A DNA stretch of 64,000 nt from a phage: the NCBI GenBank assembly GCA_012549035.1, contig GCA_012549035.1_4805.1; one strand, given 5' to 3'. The notes beneath the pieces were generated by a model. That model was not told the DNA's origin, made no database searches, and saw only the letters and a list, made by a program, of their open reading frames with translations. Made by a program: the position numbers and the translations under genes. Of the stretch, positions 5,870 through 57,401 are shown piece after piece (within the stretch, counting starts at the first letter, position 1; every line of letters starts with the position of its first letter).

Positions 5870-6195
5870 ATTGCAAACTCCGCTTCAGCAGTGGCCTGGA
5901 ATTCAGCCAACTCAGATTCTGACATGTAATATAGATTACAGCCGCCAGAGTTAAACCTTTCATAATCAGGTACGCTGTCGAAAATGAAATTACCGTACCC
6001 AATCATGAGATACTTATAAGGCACCATTGGGATACCACCAAAACAGCGCACCCCTTGAATCAAAAGTTCACCATTGCGATATACGTCGGCACACATATGC
6101 TCGATAGCGGCAAAAATGTGCAACTGCCAATATGCACCGTCAACGTTAAAGCTGATATTCTGGTTAGGTACGCTGTCAAGTGGTATTTGATACAT
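5866..6195 (-). CDS. hypothetical tail protein (109 aa)
   Basis: ORF in tail module, overlapping start/stop. Confidence 0.5.
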   Translation of the reverse strand: MYQIPLDSVPNQNISFNVDGAYWQLHIFAAIEHMCADVYRNGELLIQGVRCFGGIPMVPYKYLMIGYGNFIFDSVPDYERFNSGGCNLYYMSESELAEFQATAEAEFAI

Positions 6196-6662
6196 TATAA
6201 AATCTCTTGGTTGCTCACGCCAGTTTTGACTACGTTCTCAAACTTGAAGCGATATTGACGTGTTTTCACACGACCTTGAGACTGGATGCCAGGAATTACT
6301 GAACCAGTTGTCAAGGTGCCTTTGTTTAGCGTGATAACCATTCCAGAAGGATAAGTCAGCACAAGTGTGATCACGTCTTTTGCGGAGTTCTTGCGCTTGC
6401 CTACGCGGTTTGCAGCTGCAAGAACGTCCAAGTTGACATCACTTTCAGAAGTAGGGATGATGTTCACACCTACTTCAAGCGGGTTTGCACGGTTCCACAC
6501 TACTAAGTCACCGTTAAGGCCCATTGCAGCCTCAGAGATTTGCAGGTCCGGCGCGTCAATCGGATCAGCATCATCTGCAAAATCAGAAAGGGTCACACCA
6601 TTAGGGAAAGTGTTTGATGCTACCAAACGAATCGAAGCGCCAAAACCGGAAACGTTAATCAT
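6195..6662 (-). CDS. tail tube protein (155 aa)
   Basis: Immediately downstream of the sheath gene; paralogous to 4747..5244. Confidence 0.6.
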   Translation of the reverse strand: MINVSGFGASIRLVASNTFPNGVTLSDFADDADPIDAPDLQISEAAMGLNGDLVVWNRANPLEVGVNIIPTSESDVNLDVLAAANRVGKRKNSAKDVITLVLTYPSGMVITLNKGTLTTGSVIPGIQSQGRVKTRQYRFKFENVVKTGVSNQEIL

Positions 6663-10763: not shown

Positions 10764-11903
10764 TTAAATACCAGTCATACGGACGACTGCGAAAGGACGC
10801 TTGAGCAAAACGCCTGCTGTTGCGTTTGCGTAGTCTTCAACGTAGCTCTTAGCACGCTTTTCAACGCCCAGAGTCATGAACTTGGTCTGAACCAGCTGAC
10901 TGAATACGGAACCATCATCGCTTGAGCCATCGATTGAGGAATCAATGTGATCAGCGTACAGGTATGCCACGTTCAAGAAAGTCGGGTCACTGCCAAGTGC
11001 GCCGTTGAGTTCCGGTGCAGACTTGATCTTCATCTTCGGATAAGTCTGGGTGATCCAGTCACGTACAGAAATACCGAAGTCAGTGGTGTTGGACAGCCAA
11101 TCGATAGAGTTTGTCGGCAGCGCCAGAGTCATGTCAACCTTCTCTGGATCAATCTGGTCCTGAGAGTTCACACGAATTTGACGAACCATCAAACGGATGT
11201 CTGCAGTCACCTGTTGGAAGGTCGCAGTAGCCCAGCCGGAAGTGGTGTTGGAAGTCATCGCCGCTGGCAGGTTTGGATCATTCAGGAAGCCGAACGTGCG
11301 GTTGTTCCCGTTGTACCAACCATAGAAGCCGATTGCGTTACGCATGATTTCCAGAGATACAGCGGCCTGCTGGCGTTTGGTTTCTGCGGAGTTCAGACGC
11401 ATCGCAGACGCGCGGCCTTCTTCCAGCATACCAACTGCCATGCCCATTTCACCGCGAACGATAGAGCGACGTTCAAAGTTTACGTTCCAGCTTGCCAGAG
11501 GAATAGAGGTGAAATCACCATATTCAACTGCGGTGCCAGCTGGTTCAACGATGCCCTGAACGATTTCTGCATCTTCCCACTGACCAACGGTATCAATACC
11601 AACCAGCTCGTCGATTTTACGAGCAGCCGTCATGATTTTGACGAAGCCAGGCAGCCACTGCTGCAGGAATTGCAACGGGGTCGGGATTGACGGAGTAGTC
11701 TGCGGCGCAGTAAACGCGGCGTCACCTACGCGAAAAGCGCCTGCACGGTTTAAGTGCTCAATCTGATCACGCACAATCGCGGAATCAAACACAATACCGA
11801 TACGAGCAAGCTGGGAAACAGCCGCGTCAGTAACGGATTGCATATCAAAAGGGCGCACCTTGCTCGCTGGGAGGCGAGAGTGTGTTTGGCTAATGCGAGT
11901 CAT
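10764..11903 (-). CDS. major capsid protein (379 aa)
   Basis: Size and position downstream of scaffold-like and 212-aa head genes; conserved three-gene head arrangement. Confidence 0.7.
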
Positions 11904-42929: not shown

Positions 42930-43256
42930 ATGAACGAAAAAGAGACGAAGCAACGCGAACGTGCAACACACGTCGGAATCGTTGAGTCCTTCCTTAATAC
43001 AAGATTGAATTCAAGCCTAACAATCATGCGATTCCTGGGTCAACCAGACAGAATCAAATTTATTTTTGCCGCAAATCCGGTATCGCTGTACATCCCTGTT
43101 GAATCCATGGCGTACTTAGTGCGCGACGAGAAAGGATGGAAGATACCAAACACAACTGTTTTCTTCAGCCATGTTGATGGTGAGATGTTTGAACGAAAAG
43201 AAGATTGCCATTTTATTCCAGTATATCTGGACCTTGAAAGCGTAGTGGAGTTATAA
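42930..43256 (+). CDS. hypothetical protein (108 aa)
   Basis: First gene of plus-strand replication module. Confidence 0.55.
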   Translation: MNEKETKQRERATHVGIVESFLNTRLNSSLTIMRFLGQPDRIKFIFAANPVSLYIPVESMAYLVRDEKGWKIPNTTVFFSHVDGEMFERKEDCHFIPVYLDLESVVEL

Positions 43257-44440
43257 TGAACATTCCAGAATTTAATGATGAGCCAGTGATTCAGTTTAAC
43301 GCGCAACAAATCGACGCCATCGAGAAAGCCGTTGCATGGTACAAGCGATTGCAGGACGGTAAAACGACGAAGCGCGTGTTTTTCATCGCTGGCTATGCAG
43401 GAACTGGTAAAACCTCTATTGCTCGCGAGATTGTGCGCCGTTGTGTCGGTGAGTATGGAGCTATCTATATTGCGCCGACCGGAAAGGCTGCAAGCCGATT
43501 AAAGCAAAAAGGCTGTCGTGGCGCTAAGACCCTTCACCAGTTCATCTATAACGTGCGCGGCGTAAATGACGACAATGAGCCAATCTTTTCGAGAAAGTCA
43601 AAGCTGGATGAAAGGCCGCACCTTGTTGTACTCGATGAAGCGTCGATGGTTGGCGAGTGGGACACAGAGCGCCTTCTTGATCACCGCATCCCTGTCCTGG
43701 CATTAGGCGACATTGGACAAGTCCCTCCGGTAAAAGCCGCCGCCTACTTTACTGAAGATGCCGTTGACGTACTGTTAACAGAAATCATGCGGCAAGGGAA
43801 AGAGTCCAATATAATCCGCGCCTCCTTCTTCGTGCGCCAAGGCAACCGCCTTCCTCCGCGTGAATACGATGACGTCAAAGTATTGGCAGAATCGCCGCGC
43901 GTTACTGCATTGAAGAAATTCATGGGCGAAGATGATCAAATTATTTGCTCCTATAATAGCACCAAAGATAAATGGAATTCATTATTACGGCAAGTGAGCG
44001 GACGTATAACGCCAATGCCAGGAATCGGCGAGAAAGTTATTTGCACCTTCAACCAGCACGGGCCAGGATTCTGTAATGGCGAGCAAGGGATTGTTATTAG
44101 CTATGAGCCAGTGCCGGACTTTGAAAGGGATGAAGATGAGTCGAATGAAATAATGTATGTCAACTTGCGTTCATTGACTGATGGTAAAGATATAAAGGTA
44201 AAGATTAATCCTCTTTCCTTCTCTACTGATCAGGAAGTGCGCAAAGAAGCGCAACGTGCTGTTGGCGGGATGGACTACGGCTATGTCATCACGGTGCACA
44301 AATCGCAAGGCAGCGAGTGGGACAATGTGTGCGTGCTGGAAGAAATCTTGCGCGGCGTTCCGTACTCCAAGATGATGTACACCGCTATCACCCGTGCTAA
44401 GAAGAATCTGACCGTGTACCGTGATTTGAAAGCGCGTTAA
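43256..44440 (+). CDS. SF1 DNA helicase (Dda / RecD-like)
   Basis: 394 aa; Walker A FIAGYAGTGKTS, DEAS box VVLDEASMV, and C-terminal ITVHKSQGSEWD motif. Confidence 0.75.
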   Translation: MNIPEFNDEPVIQFNAQQIDAIEKAVAWYKRLQDGKTTKRVFFIAGYAGTGKTSIAREIVRRCVGEYGAIYIAPTGKAASRLKQKGCRGAKTLHQFIYNVRGVNDDNEPIFSRKSKLDERPHLVVLDEASMVGEWDTERLLDHRIPVLALGDIGQVPPVKAAAYFTEDAVDVLLTEIMRQGKESNIIRASFFVRQGNRLPPREYDDVKVLAESPRVTALKKFMGEDDQIICSYNSTKDKWNSLLRQVSGRITPMPGIGEKVICTFNQHGPGFCNGEQGIVISYEPVPDFERDEDESNEIMYVNLRSLTDGKDIKVKINPLSFSTDQEVRKEAQRAVGGMDYGYVITVHKSQGSEWDNVCVLEEILRGVPYSKMMYTAITRAKKNLTVYRDLKAR

Positions 44441-44593
44441 TGTTGACGTAAATTTACGAAAAATAAAACTGAAAATCAGTTTAATTAAAGTGGCATTGCC
44501 GCCATAGTTTTTAGTTGCTACTGGCGGCAACTGAAGGCATAATTAAGTTATCCCAAACGGGGAATATAAAATAAACTAATTTATTTAAGGACT

Positions 44594-45439
44594 GTGAATA
44601 TGGCCGAAGCAATCAAAGTATTATCTAAAGAAGAAAAACAAGCAGCCGCAGCAGAACGTCGTCGCGTGGCTGAAGAAAAACGCCTGGCTAAAAAGAAAGA
44701 AGCCGAAGAGAAACGCCAGAAGCGTGAGCAGGAAAAACAAGCCAAGCGTGAAGAAGCTGCGCTGAAACGCAAGCAGGCTGCTGATGAGAAGGCTCAGAAG
44801 CGTGCTGAAGAAGCAGCTAAGAAAGCTAAAGAGCGTGCAGAAAAGGCTGCTGCTAAGAAAGCAGAGCGTGAAGCCGCTAAAGCAGCAAAAGAAATCGAAA
44901 AGGCAAAGGCTAAAGAAGAAGCCAAGCGCCTGAAAGCTGAGCAGGCTGCGGCCAAGAAAGCAGAGCGTGATCAAGCCCGTGCTGCAGCGAAGGCCGAAAA
45001 AGAGAAGGCCAAAGAAGAAGCTAAAGCGAAACGCAAGGCAGAGCGTGAAGCTGCTAAGATTGCGGCGAAAGAAGCTGCAGAACAGCAGAAAGAACAGCGT
45101 AAGAAAGAAGCTGAAGAACGTCGCAAAGCCATCGCAGAACGTAAGGCTGCTAAAAAGGCAAACGGTCAGCGTCGTGCAAAAGCCACTCACTTCATCTACA
45201 CTGGCAATGGCCTGAGCCAGCCGCAAGAGCATTCCACTCGTGGACGCGTTCTGGCGGCGATCAAAGAAGGCGAAGTTGGCGTGGCGCAGTCTATCGATGA
45301 GCTGGGCGAAAAAGTTAAAGATCAACTGTTTGGCGCTTCCGTTCGCTCCTACCTGAGCAAGCTGGAAGAGATGGGCCACATCGAGTTTGTCGATGTTGAA
45401 TCCAACGACGATGCTGAAGACGGTGATCAAGCGGAATAA
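44594..45439 (+). CDS. K/E/A/R-rich charged-helix protein with globular C-terminal domain (281 aa)
   Basis: About 190 aa of AEEKR/AKKAE-type low complexity, then about 80-aa C-terminal domain; host-optimal codons. Confidence 0.6.
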   Translation: MNMAEAIKVLSKEEKQAAAAERRRVAEEKRLAKKKEAEEKRQKREQEKQAKREEAALKRKQAADEKAQKRAEEAAKKAKERAEKAAAKKAEREAAKAAKEIEKAKAKEEAKRLKAEQAAAKKAERDQARAAAKAEKEKAKEEAKAKRKAEREAAKIAAKEAAEQQKEQRKKEAEERRKAIAERKAAKKANGQRRAKATHFIYTGNGLSQPQEHSTRGRVLAAIKEGEVGVAQSIDELGEKVKDQLFGASVRSYLSKLEEMGHIEFVDVESNDDAEDGDQAE

Positions 45440-45467: not shown

Positions 45468-45494
45468 GACCCACACTTGTTGTGGGTCTTTTTT
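45468..45494 (+). terminator. intrinsic terminator
   Basis: GACCCACA-cttgt-TGTGGGTC followed by TTTTTT. Confidence 0.65.
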
Positions 45495-45573
45495 CGTCTG
45501 TACTAAATAGAAATGACTTGTTGCTGTAAAATAATTTAGCTATTATACTTCTCATATCACCCACAAAGGACAA

Positions 45574-46569
45574 ATGAACATGAAACAACATGTAATGATT
45601 ATCGGCGGCGGTTTGGCAGGACTTATTACCGCGTGTCACTTCCCGAACTCTATTGTGTACGAAGCAGGGGAGCGAGCGCAGCAGCACAAGGCGTTGCTAC
45701 GCTTTCGCGGCGAAGAAGTAAGCCGTATTACCGGAATCCCTTTTAAGGCCGTGACAGTTGACAAGGCTGTGTATTTTCGCGGCAACTACTACCACGACCA
45801 TTGCCCAATCAACCTTGCCAATATGTATTCCATGAAGGTCACCAATCAATTCGGTAGCCGCTCAATTATGAAGCTTAAAACTGCAACGCGTTATATTGCG
45901 CCTGATGACTTTTATGATCAGCTTGTCGACAAACTGGGTGACCGCATATTCTTTAACACTCCTGTTGATACGCTTTGCGGCTATAGCGAGACGCCAATCA
46001 TCAACACGTCGCCGCTGCCAGTCATGATGAAGCTTGCTGGGATTGATCAAAAGATTGATTTCTCATTCGATAAGGCGAACATTCGTGTTTACCGCTTTAA
46101 GATTAAACGCAAGTGTGAACTGTATCAAACCATTTACTTCCCTGACTACTCCGTCAGAACTTACCGCGCATCAATCACTGGCGACACATTGATCATCGAA
46201 ACAATTCCTTTGGTTAGCGTAAGTGAAGCTGCAGTTGAAGCCGCTGGCGGCATTACTCGTTACCGTGACATTAAGTTGCGTGCAGAAGTTGACGAAGTGT
46301 TGACAGCCTTTGGCCTCTCATGGAGTGACATTACTCTTGAAGAAGTTGAAAAGGTCGACCAGAAATATGGCAAGATTGTCGACATTCCGAAGGACTTGCG
46401 ACACGCCCTACTCCTGCAGCTGACTATGGATTTGAACGTGTTTAGTGTCGGTCGATTTGCTACCTGGCGCAACATTTTGCTTGATGATGTCGCTCATGAC
46501 CTTGTTGAAGTTGAAAAACTCATCAAAGCAAATAACTATCAAAAATTTGCTTATATTGCTAATAAATAA
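45574..46569 (+). CDS. FAD/NAD(P)-binding oxidoreductase-like protein (331 aa)
   Basis: N-terminal Rossmann dinucleotide-binding motif MIIGGGLAGL. Confidence 0.55.
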   Translation: MNMKQHVMIIGGGLAGLITACHFPNSIVYEAGERAQQHKALLRFRGEEVSRITGIPFKAVTVDKAVYFRGNYYHDHCPINLANMYSMKVTNQFGSRSIMKLKTATRYIAPDDFYDQLVDKLGDRIFFNTPVDTLCGYSETPIINTSPLPVMMKLAGIDQKIDFSFDKANIRVYRFKIKRKCELYQTIYFPDYSVRTYRASITGDTLIIETIPLVSVSEAAVEAAGGITRYRDIKLRAEVDEVLTAFGLSWSDITLEEVEKVDQKYGKIVDIPKDLRHALLLQLTMDLNVFSVGRFATWRNILLDDVAHDLVEVEKLIKANNYQKFAYIANK

Positions 46570-49614: not shown

Positions 49615-50166
49615 ATGCCACATTTTAAAATTGAACAAATCGCCCTGTCAATTCCAGATGCTCAGCGCGCACAGGATTTCTTGGCTAAAATCGGCCTGAC
49701 AGAATGGTTCCATGATCATGTTGTTGCTACTGGTCGCGTATTTGAAGCTGATGACTTTAAAGGTCGTCGCGACGATTGCACCAATGAAGCTGACTTGCGC
49801 TTCAACTATCAGGCTGGCAACGGTACTGATGGTGGCGCTGGTAAGCCTCTTGAGCTTGAAATCCTTGACTACACAATGGGCTGCAACTGGATTAACGAAA
49901 ACATCGAATATATCGATGCGCATGACAATCAGGTCAGCCATCTTGGCATGCACGTAACTGCCGCTGAACTTGCTGAATGGCGTAAGTTCTTTAGCGAAGA
50001 AGGCATTCAGGTTGCACAGGAAGTTGTAACTGACTCTCATACCAACCCGAACATTGCTGGTCAACGTCGTTACAACTATGTGATCTTTGATACGCGTGAA
50101 ATCATCGGTGTTGATTTGAAGTTTATCGTGCGCTTGAATCAAGACGGTACTCCGTACACTGTATAA
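49615..50166 (+). CDS. hypothetical protein (183 aa), possibly VOC/glyoxalase-like
   Basis: ORF with good context; fold assignment speculative. Confidence 0.5.
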   Translation: MPHFKIEQIALSIPDAQRAQDFLAKIGLTEWFHDHVVATGRVFEADDFKGRRDDCTNEADLRFNYQAGNGTDGGAGKPLELEILDYTMGCNWINENIEYIDAHDNQVSHLGMHVTAAELAEWRKFFSEEGIQVAQEVVTDSHTNPNIAGQRRYNYVIFDTREIIGVDLKFIVRLNQDGTPYTV

Positions 50167-55663: not shown

Positions 55664-55927
55664 ATGGTACGCATCCTTGAACGTTACAAAAATGAAGCTA
55701 CTGGAGTAATCGCTTTCAAACGTCTTTTGGTCAAAGAAATTGACGGAATGTTCCGCGTTGTTAAAGAGTTTGATTATGGCAACGGTGCTGGGGTGAATAC
55801 CGTTATTATGCCTGGCATCAAGGCATATAAAACCTTAAAAGGCGCTGAGAAGGCTTTGGCGGCTTGGAAACCTGAACGTTATCAAATGACCCGTGTTGAA
55901 GGGCTAATGCAAGAAGGTAAAATATGA
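55664..55927 (+). CDS. hypothetical protein (87 aa)
   Basis: ORF with RBS-like GAGGAA upstream. Confidence 0.5.
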   Translation: MVRILERYKNEATGVIAFKRLLVKEIDGMFRVVKEFDYGNGAGVNTVIMPGIKAYKTLKGAEKALAAWKPERYQMTRVEGLMQEGKI

Positions 55928-56481
55928 GCAATATTAATTGGGAAGATGATTTGCCGCAGGTTGCTCCTGAGAGCATTCAAGAGCGCCTTGCGCGCTTAGT
56001 ATCTGAACTGGCAGAACGCCAAGAAGCTTTGACGGAGCTTGAAGATGAAGCTGATATGCAAAAGCAGCGCATCAGTGAAATCAAAACTGTTCTGCTTCCT
56101 GGCGTTATGGATGAGCTTGGTGTGTCTGAAATCAAGCTTGAGGACAAGACCAAAATCAAGGTCGAGTCAAAGGTGAATGCTTCAATCAAGAAAGAAAACG
56201 AATTAAAAGTTTTCGATTGGCTTGTCAACAACGGTTACGGCGGCTTGATCAAGTCCAGCGTCACGGCTGAGTTCGGTCGCGAAGAAATCGAACAGGCGCA
56301 AGAGATTGTTGCCGCGCTGCGTGAAGATGGTGTTGAAGCCACGTTGAAACAAGGCGTTCACTCTGCTACACTGAAGTCGTTTGTAAAAGAACAGCTGGAA
56401 GCGGGCAATCCAGTTAGTGAAGATATTAGCGTTTTTGAATACAAAGAAGCTAAAATAACCTTGCCTAAAAGCAAAAAGTAA
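55924..56481 (+). CDS. hypothetical acidic protein (185 aa)
   Basis: ATGA overlap with upstream gene. Confidence 0.5.
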   Translation: MSNINWEDDLPQVAPESIQERLARLVSELAERQEALTELEDEADMQKQRISEIKTVLLPGVMDELGVSEIKLEDKTKIKVESKVNASIKKENELKVFDWLVNNGYGGLIKSSVTAEFGREEIEQAQEIVAALREDGVEATLKQGVHSATLKSFVKEQLEAGNPVSEDISVFEYKEAKITLPKSKK

Positions 56482-56540: not shown

Positions 56541-57401
56541 ATGTCTAAGAAAGAAACTACCGAAGTTGCAGTGAAAAACACCCAGATGTCCGCTATGGCT
56601 GATTTTGTCGACATGACCGATTTTGGCGCTGGTTTTGAAGGTGCCGATGCCGATGCGTATGCCATTCCTTTTATCGTCGTACTGCAGAAGATGTCTCCTA
56701 TGGTCGACGAAGATGATCCAAAACACGTTCCTGGCGCAAAAGCTGGCATGCTTTACAACACCGTTACTGGTGAGTTGTATGACGGCAAGAAAGGCGTGCA
56801 GATCATCCCTTGCGCATTCAAACGCACCTTCATTCTTTGGGGCGGTCGCGAGTCCGACGATAAAGGCTTTAAAGGTGAATTCACCAAAGAGCACGTTGAT
56901 GCAGAAGTCGCGGCAGGCCGCGCTGTTGAGATCAACGGTAAGGTATTCGTGCCGGACGAAAACGGCAAGGTGCACGAGAAGAAATCTCCTTACTACGCAG
57001 ATACACGCAACCACTTCGTAATTCTGTTGAACGAAGAAACTGGTGAATTTGGTAGCGCAATGCTGTCTCTGACTTCTTCCATGATCAAGCCGTCTCGCAT
57101 GCTGATGACCGCTCTGCAGCAGAAGAAAGTTCAGACTCCGCAGGGTCTGAAAACGCCGCCGACCTTTATGAACATCGTTCGCATGGGTACTGCATCCCAG
57201 TCCAAAGACGGCAACACCTGGTCTGTTCTGAAGTTTGAGCTGGAAGGTCTGGTGCAGGACAAAGGCCTGTACGAAGTCGCCAAGGCATTCCACAACGACG
57301 TAGTTGGCGGTAACGTTAACATCGACCGCAGCAAGCAGGAAGAAGCAAGCGGTGCCGCTGGTCCTGTCAATGAAACTCCGACCGACGCAGAAGAGTTTTA
57401 A
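56541..57401 (+). CDS. ssDNA-binding protein-like
   Basis: 286 aa; acidic C-terminal tail ending in DAEEF (terminal Phe as in T7 gp2.5 and bacterial SSB); in replication module. Confidence 0.45.
   Translation: MSKKETTEVAVKNTQMSAMADFVDMTDFGAGFEGADADAYAIPFIVVLQKMSPMVDEDDPKHVPGAKAGMLYNTVTGELYDGKKGVQIIPCAFKRTFILWGGRESDDKGFKGEFTKEHVDAEVAAGRAVEINGKVFVPDENGKVHEKKSPYYADTRNHFVILLNEETGEFGSAMLSLTSSMIKPSRMLMTALQQKKVQTPQGLKTPPTFMNIVRMGTASQSKDGNTWSVLKFELEGLVQDKGLYEVAKAFHNDVVGGNVNIDRSKQEEASGAAGPVNETPTDAEEF

Follow-up and report, generated by a model that had tools for sequence, protein, structure and literature searches.

The KfrA protein of IncP plasmids combines a winged helix-turn-helix (HTH) DNA-binding domain (KfrA_N, PF11740) with a long Ala/Glu/Lys/Arg-rich helical tail, described as a coiled coil, and linker histone H1, an abundant and stoichiometric protein, joins a winged-helix globular domain to a long, disordered and polycationic Lys/Ala-rich tail. 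Single alpha-helix (SAH) domains of the ER/K type, such as those of myosin VI/X and caldesmon, are near-neutral and carry charge blocks that wrap round the helix. Among phage proteins, phi29 p6 and SPO1 TF1 are genome-organising or histone-like, and T4 gp32 and T7 gp2.5 are DNA-binding proteins with an acidic tail. Here we analyse a gene at 44600-45439 (+ strand) in a 64,000-nucleotide stretch of phage DNA (GenBank assembly GCA_012549035.1, contig GCA_012549035.1_4805.1; the whole stretch is called the window below), a region to which the Wifcevirus coliphages vB_EcoM_WFC, TH35, Bas99, vB_Eco4M-7, FEC19 and ECML-117 are 97-99% identical. Its product is an abundant cytoplasmic phage protein made of a striped helix, a predicted winged-helix-like domain and an acidic tail. 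We propose, with a probability of about 0.4, that it is a stoichiometric, non-enzymatic and nucleic-acid-associated architectural protein, that is, a phage 'chromatin' or genome-organising factor. The gene and the parts of its product, the latter taken from AlphaFold2 (AF2) models and, for the globular domain, also from a hidden Markov model (HMM) search, are:

44600-45439, + strand: coding sequence, 279 aa, 31.1 kDa, pI 9.6; PHROG family phrog_4765 (unknown function); also annotated in 7 Wifcevirus records
44627-45160, + strand: long alpha-helix, codons 10-187 (AF2); ~27 nm extended, net charge +25, continuous basic stripe
45161-45394, + strand: basic junction arm (GQRRAKATH) and compact winged-helix-like domain, codons 188-265 (AF2, HMM search)
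45395-45436, + strand: acidic tail ESNDDAEDGDQAE, codons 266-279; net charge -7, predicted to be disordered (AF2)

The gene is already known, having been deposited many times as hypothetical, 'TolA' or 'structural protein'. New here are, first, that these labels lack foundation; second, that basic residues form a conserved stripe on one side of the helix; and third, that the protein belongs to a small family, restricted to phages, whose gene has a fixed place among the replication genes. Also new are the gene's own conserved sigma-70-like promoter and its terminator, both predicted. The protein belongs to no Pfam or NCBIfam family, has no significant match to a solved structure and carries misleading names, while being encoded by a core gene of PB1-like lytic myoviruses, including Pbunavirus phages used in therapy, and by one of the most strongly expressed non-structural genes, as judged from codon usage and published proteomics of virion preparations.

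Comparison with described systems

With KfrA the protein shares a small HTH-type domain joined to a charged Ala-rich helix of more than 100 residues, its location, on a mobile replicon and close to genes for replication and maintenance, and a non-enzymatic character. However, the order is reversed (helix N-terminal, globular domain C-terminal), there is no heptad signal and the basic stripe is one-sided. KfrA_N had no Pfam match in the protein, and tblastn against 72,556 plasmids returned no homologue. The likeness to histone H1 lies in the joining of a winged-helix-like domain to a long polycationic segment, and the H1 structure 1uss is among the weak fold matches (E ~3-4, not significant). 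Unlike the H1 tail, the basic segment is 22% acidic, contains no proline and, by prediction, is a rigid, pre-formed helix; here too the order is reversed, and an acidic tail is added. The helix resembles ER/K SAH domains in its great length, its E/K/R-rich composition without Gly or Pro and almost without a hydrophobic seam, its spacing of opposite charges and its prediction as a single helix by AF2, but it is 30% Ala, has a net charge of +25 and carries its K/R residues on one face, whereas an idealised E4K4 sequence has a period of 8 and no 3.7-residue signal.

The phage proteins phi29 p6, SPO1 TF1, T4 gp32 and T7 gp2.5 were compared as a set: the likeness is that of abundant, non-enzymatic proteins encoded with replication genes and bearing an acidic C-terminal tail, and the difference is that our protein is unrelated to them in sequence and fold, with no oligonucleotide/oligosaccharide-binding (OB) fold, no HU fold and no Pfam match (none at E <= 0.1; NCBIfam likewise gave no match). 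A role as substitute for a single-stranded DNA-binding protein (SSB) was dropped, since nothing in the protein resembles an OB fold, and SSBs serve solely for comparison with the acidic tail. The first 50 kb of Bas99, replication module included, have no annotated SSB, and the other open reading frames (ORFs) with host-like codon usage that we scanned were not SSB-like.

The annotation 'TolA' is carried by the records of ECML-117, FEC19, vB_Eco4M-7, MTx, BcepF1 and some Pseudomonas phages. It would make the protein a TolA homologue, an envelope-spanning protein of the Tol-Pal type, and we consider the chance of this negligible. What favours it is the A/K/E-rich composition and the name in the records, nothing else: the database name goes back to TolA domain II, likewise a long low-complexity region that is helical and rich in A/K/E/D. 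When compared with E. coli TolA by composition-adjusted BLASTP, the protein gave E = 0.17, in domain II only, and the TolA C-terminal domain III (PF06519) was not found at E <= 0.1, with E. coli TolA itself as control at 2e-38. There is no N-terminal hydrophobic anchor either (the N-terminus is MAEAIKVLSKEEKQ, and residues 1-195 contain no hydrophobic stretch), and the basic stripe described below, with its 3.7-residue periodicity, is absent from TolA domain II. On these comparisons, we reject TolA homology; the name is a low-complexity or composition artefact, and the annotation in public records should be corrected.

A long helix with a one-sided basic stripe

Residues 9-195 are ~93% A/E/K/R/Q (85-100% in every 20-residue window), in line with the roughly 190 residues of charged low complexity that the initial annotation of this locus had described; the whole protein contains 23% A, 18% K, 18% E, 9% R and 6% Q. 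The 179 residues from 9 to 187 include neither Gly nor Pro, and only 7 bulky hydrophobic residues. At the DNA level we found no tandem repeats apart from a two-copy 15-mer. The bias is thus compositional, and a recent repeat expansion as its source is ruled out.

AF2 modelling of the full-length protein, from an alignment of 19 sequences, gave a mean predicted local distance difference test (pLDDT) score of 87.9 and placed residues 10-187 in one unbroken helix (pLDDT 78-98), whose length is ~27 nm when computed at 1.5 Å per residue. No heptad (3.5-residue) periodicity of Ala or of hydrophobic residues was detected (power for Ala 0.05, against a 95th percentile of 1.6 in the null distribution), which makes a canonical coiled coil unlikely and favours a single helix. 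Of the two structures first put forward, a single charged helix or a coiled coil, the former is thus the better supported.

Basic residues, by contrast with the null expectation, are strongly periodic. The Fourier power of K/R at a period of 3.7 residues is 3.6 (95th percentile of shuffled sequences, 1.6), and their autocorrelation peaks at lags of 7, 11 (z = 4.2), 18, 22 and 26. In a frame of 3.68 residues per turn, one 120-degree sector holds 41 of the 65 K/R residues and a single one of the 40 D/E residues, the acidic residues being centred ~180 degrees opposite. K/R thus line one face of the helix, with a period of ~11/3, and E/D, Ala and Gln occupy the others. The 3.65-3.7 period and the opposite acidic phase recur almost throughout the family, in which 17 of 19 members have a helix of positive net charge; neither E. 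coli TolA domain II nor an idealised (E4K4)n control shows the basic periodicity. Opposite charges are enriched at i+3, i+4 and i+5 (K-to-E at i+4, z = 3.3; E-to-K at i+3, z = 1.7), as would be expected if salt bridges along the borders of the stripe stabilise a single helix. As modelled, the segment is neither a canonical coiled coil nor a classical ER/K helix, but a helix with a one-sided basic stripe. The conservation of this stripe leads to a concrete hypothesis, namely electrostatic binding to a linear polyanion.

C-terminal domain and family

The initial annotation had also foreseen a compact C-terminal domain, which is borne out by structure prediction. In the full-length model, it comprises a strand (197-200), a helix (213-222), a strand (229-231), two helices (232-243 and 248-257) and a last strand (261-264), with pLDDT 91-97, and AF2 on the C-terminal 104 residues alone (alignment of 6 sequences) gave a core pLDDT of ~88. 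In these models the domain, of 70 residues, has the winged-helix topology H1-strand-H2-H3-strand(-strand). The junction arm that precedes it has a net charge of +3. In the PDB, Foldseek matched the domain best, at E = 0.2-0.5, to the insert domain of MetAP2 (type-2 methionine aminopeptidases), Ebp1 and Arx1; weaker matches include Fur/Zur/PerR, the globular domain of histone H1, Z-alpha, RPA32C and MotA. A structure search of BFVD returned family members only, and sequence searches of the PDB, with the single sequence or a profile, returned nothing.

Residues R191, R192, T196, H197, P208, Q209, S212, R214, R249, K254 and L255 are invariant in 8 phage genera, and the conserved C-terminal block RR..ATH ... 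PQ..S.RG ... VRSYLSKLEEMGH is present in our protein. Phages with widely differing hosts and genome GC content have an almost unchanged putative 'recognition helix', SVRSYLSKLEEMGH. A scan for the motif YLSKLE[EI]M over 185,579 bacterial genomes yielded one relative, a Sporomusa LexA (PF01726) that shares YLSKLEEMG. Aligned by hhalign, the winged helix of this LexA matches the family profile with 96.5% probability and with H1, H2, H3 and wing in register, this LexA having been picked by the shared 8-residue motif; E. coli LexA, an unselected control, aligned in the same register at E = 0.22, which is not significant. We therefore call the domain winged-helix-like and do not claim membership of the LexA family.

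The protein matches phrog_4765 over its full length (E = 2.4e-84, residues 1-279 against profile positions 14-271 of 294). With the C-terminal 89 residues as query, tblastn found 357 phage records, 293 of which are Pseudomonas phages (Pbunavirus); the others infect Escherichia/Shigella (Wifcevirus), Serratia, Burkholderia, Xanthomonas, Pantoea and Aeromonas. Word-indexed searches with the domain or its alignment gave only 4-7 fragments, and an exhaustive HMM search was needed: among 1.84 billion cluster representatives it retrieved 38 clusters only, all of which carry the domain C-terminally, almost always behind an E/K/A/R-rich helix. By these sequence searches, the domain defines a small phage-only family (Pbunavirus, Wifcevirus, Kylevirus and others). 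Nearly all members carry an acidic tail, of 2-42 residues.

The order helicase, phrog_4765 gene, terminator, phrog_4828 gene and ThyX gene is kept in seven genera, and BcepF1 has the helicase without phrog_4828. With 56-68% identity to Kyle, MTx and 14-1, the C-terminal domain is conserved to the same degree as the helicase (50-65%). In five distant members (P0035-P0039), the charged helix is replaced by another N-terminal region. One distant member, encoded at 6001-6594 of the metagenomic contig Ga0484961_0002537 (L017), occupies the equivalent position in the same replication module, preceding phrog_4828-like, ThyX, PNKP, FabG-like, glyoxalase-like, DnaQ and DnaE genes, with no adjoining helicase. 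Since the distant members keep the domain and the position but not the helix, the C-terminal domain is the ancestral part, fixed in position, and the striped helix a feature of the PB1-like branch.

As a separate observation, the replaced N-terminal region of P0035-P0039 has the form '..ATYNALTGKSIKKFENR..', with a weak match to phrog_4730 (unknown function), and is followed by a Pro/Ala/Glu-rich linker.

Coding constraint, codon usage and detection of the protein

Among 7 Wifcevirus genomes, 58 sites of the gene are variable, 56 of them at third codon positions; 54 are synonymous and 4 non-synonymous in the sense frame, so the possibility that the ORF is a frameshifted remnant is excluded. 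In the helix, 40 variable nucleotides produce one amino-acid change and 39 silent differences, which indicates that its exact sequence, beyond mere composition, is under purifying selection. The gene is real and strongly constrained. An open frame also lies on the opposite strand:

44621-45430, - strand: antisense ORF, 269 aa, in the exact codon-aligned reverse frame and bounded by a single TTA codon; non-coding artefact

This frame stays open because the sense gene has just one codon of the TTA/CTA/TCA type (TTA at 44621). In it, 50 of the 58 variable sites would be non-synonymous, against 4 of 58 in the sense frame, which rules it out as a gene and agrees with its first interpretation as an artefact.

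We computed the codon adaptation index (CAI) from a reference of 30 E. coli K-12 genes (ribosomal-protein genes, rpoA, tufA for EF-Tu and fusA for EF-G; 5,185 codons). The gene has the highest CAI of the 91 ORFs in the window (0.688; median 0.374), and its codon usage is more host-like than that of its flanking genes (0.382 and 0.419), as had been noted. Because proteins rich in E and K carry an inflated CAI, we also set each gene's CAI against an expectation derived from its amino-acid composition and the phage-wide synonymous usage. After this correction (expected CAI 0.461, z = 6.8) the gene ranks third, behind the major head protein gene (10764-11903) and the ORF at 56541-57401, and the bias is present in both halves (z = 5.3 for the helix, 4.3 for the C-terminal part). 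It is driven mainly by Arg (25 of 25 codons CGT or CGC, p = 0.001), Leu (9 of 10 CTG, p = 3e-6), Ile and Ser. Of the five codons initially named as host-optimal, GAA, AAA and GCT show mild trends only (p = 0.09-0.33).

Mass spectrometry (MS) data support expression. Necel et al. (2020) analysed CsCl-gradient-purified vB_Eco4M-7 and ECML-117 by liquid chromatography-tandem MS (PMC7048862); the orthologues of these phages are 98.7% and 96.8% identical to our gene at the DNA level, and the C-terminal 89 residues of the ECML-117 protein are identical to ours. The 'TolA protein' vB_Eco4M-7_83 (31.1 kDa) was detected with 7 peptides, 25.8% coverage and a score of 1197.6, which ranks 6th of 33 proteins, above portal, capsid and sheath (PMC7048862). 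The theoretical ceiling of tryptic coverage without missed cleavages is ~43%, since trypsin cuts the K/R-rich helix into very short pieces. The protein is therefore made, in answer to the proteomic check suggested at the outset, for which a lack of expression would have told against the gene (PMC7048862). High expression, also anticipated in the initial annotation, is supported by the codon bias, by this detection and by the gene's own sigma-70-like promoter and strong terminator, both predicted (see below).

Across the window, the ranking of the 91 ORFs by corrected CAI approximately recovers the proteins detected by MS in purified Wifcevirus preparations, as matched by size and map position. 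The top 12 apparently comprise head, sheath, protease and other structural genes together with the non-structural genes named here, and one primase gene whose product was apparently not detected. Codon bias thus seems to predict protein abundance well in this phage. The ORF at 56541-57401 (+ strand; Pam3_Gp34-like, PF23977, 286 aa) has a CAI of 0.666 and z = 7.9, the second-highest corrected value in the window, and adjoins an ORF for a Pam3 gp33-like DUF7307 protein (55924-56481, + strand). By size and map position, their products (31.2 and 20.7 kDa) are apparently vB_Eco4M-7_70 and _71, both detected in CsCl-purified phage. A 183-aa ORF at 49615-50166 (+ strand; CAI 0.591, z = 4.7), with a weak match to Glyoxalase_4, has its own terminator in WFC, and the size of its product fits the 20.8-kDa 'glyoxalase family protein' vB_Eco4M-7_77, also seen by MS in purified phage; a glyoxalase-like gene stands at the equivalent position in the distant metagenomic phage (L017).

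Proposed function and alternatives

If the protein is a genome-organising factor, DNA would be held by electrostatic attraction to the polycationic face and the basic arm, along tens of base pairs (27 nm correspond to ~80 bp), and the winged-helix-like head would make a second contact, either with DNA or with a replication partner that is itself conserved. By competing with DNA for the basic face, the acidic tail may tune this binding, a mechanism known from HMGB proteins, T4 gp32 and T7 gp2.5. Being abundant and DNA-bound, the protein would partly accompany packaged DNA or virions, and its presence in CsCl-purified phage would be explained. In favour of the proposal count the coding constraint, the signs of high expression, the basic stripe shared by the family, the winged-helix-like topology, the conservation of the domain, the gene's place in the replication module and the absence of a homologue from DNA-free particles of SCUT-S1 (see below).

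Several observations weigh against this proposal. We found no functional study of any family member in the literature, and nucleic-acid binding is reported for none. The helix varies in length from 58 to 188 residues and is absent from distant positional orthologues, so it is not essential to the core function of the domain. The winged-helix core has a net charge of -4 (-6 to +1 in the family), which is atypical of a DNA-binding winged helix, and such an acidic core, as modelled, fits protein-protein recognition better than DNA binding. No significant structural match outside the family was obtained in three Foldseek searches, and the unselected E. coli LexA control was likewise not significant. 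As for the virion preparations, the ECML-117 orthologue PI34_gp81 was represented by 2 peptides with a weak score of 3.2, near the detection limit (PMC7048862), and virion association may reflect carry-over of abundant proteins instead of packaging. The homologue gp68 is unmentioned in the text of the E217 virion paper, whose abstract announces de novo structures of 19 gene products.

The acidity of the core bears on a second reading, the main rival of our proposal, which we regard as rather unlikely, in which the protein is a protein-protein scaffold or spacer of the replication machinery, or a self-assembling rod. As a scaffold, the C-terminal domain would dock on a conserved phage protein (e.g. 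the adjacent Dda-like helicase, primase or DnaE-type polymerase) or on a host protein, with the rigid helix as a long spacer or tether; in self-assembly, the basic stripe would pack on the acidic stripe of a neighbour to form bundles or sheets that organise a replication compartment. Both core and tail are acidic (-4 and -7; -6 to +1 and -1 to -13 in the family), and winged-helix folds such as RPA32C, one of the weak structural matches, bind proteins. The near-invariance of SVRSYLSKLEEMGH across phages of differing hosts and GC content is more easily accounted for by a conserved protein partner than by a DNA site. The gene always adjoins that of the helicase, and the stripes of opposite charge, which share the 11/3 period and face away from each other at 180 degrees, would permit lateral charge-complementary packing. 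Nevertheless, the gene is transcribed separately from the helicase gene, according to the predicted signals, and the distant orthologue does not stand beside a helicase gene. Expression at the level of a major structural protein exceeds the need of an adaptor in a catalytic complex, a charge of +25 on one face would be hard to leave unneutralised amid cellular nucleic acid, and a molecular ruler would be expected to keep its length, which this helix does not.

The detection in purified virions, which on the genome-organising proposal is due to partial travel with DNA, could also mean that the protein is a true virion-internal protein, packaged and injected with the genome, where it would neutralise charge in the capsid or shield the entering DNA from host nucleases. 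P1 Dar and the T4 internal proteins are models for such a function. The protein was detected in CsCl-purified virions of two Wifcevirus phages, in one of them with a score above portal, capsid and sheath. In the Pbunavirus SCUT-S1, the homologue ORF69 is absent from LiCl/DNase-treated, DNA-free 'ghost' particles, in which the products of the neighbouring ORF70 and ORF72 were detected; this fits a protein that leaves together with the DNA. In addition, according to the BASEL study, Wifcevirus phages are considerably resistant to restriction in K-12 (PMC11990801). We nonetheless hold this alternative to be improbable. Its gene belongs to the replication module and follows a sigma-70-like promoter instead of standing with the late structural genes. 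The same preparations also contain other abundant non-structural proteins (glyoxalase-like, FabG-like and Pam3 gp33/gp34-like, with traces of helicase), which points to carry-over, and the first three kinds are exactly the other high-CAI genes. The weak ECML-117 signal and the silence of the E217 paper on gp68 count against it as well. In its favour, many Pbunavirus and Carpasinavirus records call the orthologues '(putative) structural protein', but these labels may simply have been copied from one record to another; the papers on KTN6, JG024 and E217, where we looked for the origin of the label, do not mention the gene.

A bolder form of the genome-organising proposal, which we find more doubtful still, is a new type of phage 'chromatin', in which the rigid, pre-formed 27-nm striped helix would lie along or bridge DNA, with the winged-helix-like head as its anchor and the acidic tail as its regulator; the protein, made in near-structural amounts, would coat replicating genomes and be partly co-packaged and co-injected, shielding incoming DNA from restriction and other nucleases. 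If true, it would contribute to the very fast infection cycle and the restriction tolerance reported for Wifcevirus, and would represent both a new principle of DNA binding and a new protein-based anti-restriction strategy in therapeutically used PB1-like phages. More generally, a role in organising or protecting phage DNA would make the protein the representative of a new class of phage genome-associated proteins. If it has no such role, its helix still deserves the attention of protein engineers, being natural, very long, single and apparently stable, with a charge pattern that looks designed.

Start codon, transcription signals and gene context

The ORF exists as first described, and the same coding sequence is annotated in 7 Wifcevirus records. 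Its start, initially placed at GTG 44594, has been replaced by the in-frame ATG 44600. The following signals surround the gene:

44496-44530, + strand: 9-bp inverted repeat TTGCCGCCA-N17-TGGCGGCAA between the helicase gene and the phrog_4765 gene; loop and 3' arm overlap the -35 hexamer
44515-44543, + strand: sigma-70-like promoter, -35 TTGCTA, 17-nt spacer, -10 CATAAT; predicted by consensus scan
44587-44591, + strand: Shine-Dalgarno sequence AAGGA, 8 nt 5' of ATG 44600; read from the sequence
45468-45497, + strand: intrinsic terminator, 3' of the stop codon; 8-bp GC-rich stem, 5-nt loop and T6 run

GTG 44594 lies only 2 nt past AAGGA and ATG 44600 has the proper spacing of 8 nt; the latter is also the annotated start in all 7 Wifcevirus records examined, and on both grounds we adopted it.

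The position of the promoter is kept in five genera, including Kylevirus, Myosmarvirus, Pbunavirus 14-1 and Aeromonas phage Gekk3-15, with aligned equivalents TTGCTT-17-GATAAT (Kyle), TTGCCT-17-GATAAT (MTx), TTCCCT-17-GATAAT (14-1) and TTGCCT-17-TAATAT (Gekk3-15). The terminator is annotated in WFC and WFH, and equivalents are annotated in KTN6, MTx and XcP1. With a promoter and a terminator of its own, the gene is most likely a separate monocistronic transcription unit, read by the host RNA polymerase, with a predicted start near 44550 and end near 45495. The 159-nt intergenic region between the helicase gene and the phrog_4765 gene shows only 1-3 differences among Wifcevirus genomes and is more conserved than the synonymous sites of the gene. 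A scan for terminator-like structures flags 44490-44505 in this region, and a different inverted repeat is found at the equivalent place in each of Kyle, MTx, BcepF1 and Gekk3-15. The repeat at 44496-44530 could be a weak terminator of the upstream helicase operon, or an operator.

The mRNA leader contains, at ~44551-44564, a hairpin of 3-4 bp that lies within ~15 nt of the presumed transcription start and is predicted in 4 of 5 genera, with stems that differ by genus (CCC/GGG, GGGG/CCCC, GGC/GCC and GGCC/GGCC). The folding energies of these hairpins are no better than those of shuffled sequences; the hairpin might act as a 5' mRNA-stabilising stem-loop.

The gene sits in a module of replication and nucleotide-metabolism genes. 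Its order is Dda-like helicase (43256-44440), phrog_4765 gene, phrog_4828 gene, a 148-aa ORF, ThyX and polynucleotide kinase, followed further 3' by the FabG-like reductase, the glyoxalase-like ORF, a DnaQ-like exonuclease and a DnaE-type polymerase. The downstream neighbour (45574-46569, + strand; 331 aa, phrog_4828) had no Pfam or NCBIfam match and begins with a Rossmann-type dinucleotide-binding motif, MIIGGGLAGL. It stands beside the phrog_4765 gene, just 5' of ThyX, in six genera and in the distant metagenomic phage, and is annotated as 'oxidoreductase' in Kyle. From its motif and position, the phrog_4828 protein may be a flavin or NAD(P) enzyme that partners the flavin-dependent thymidylate synthase.

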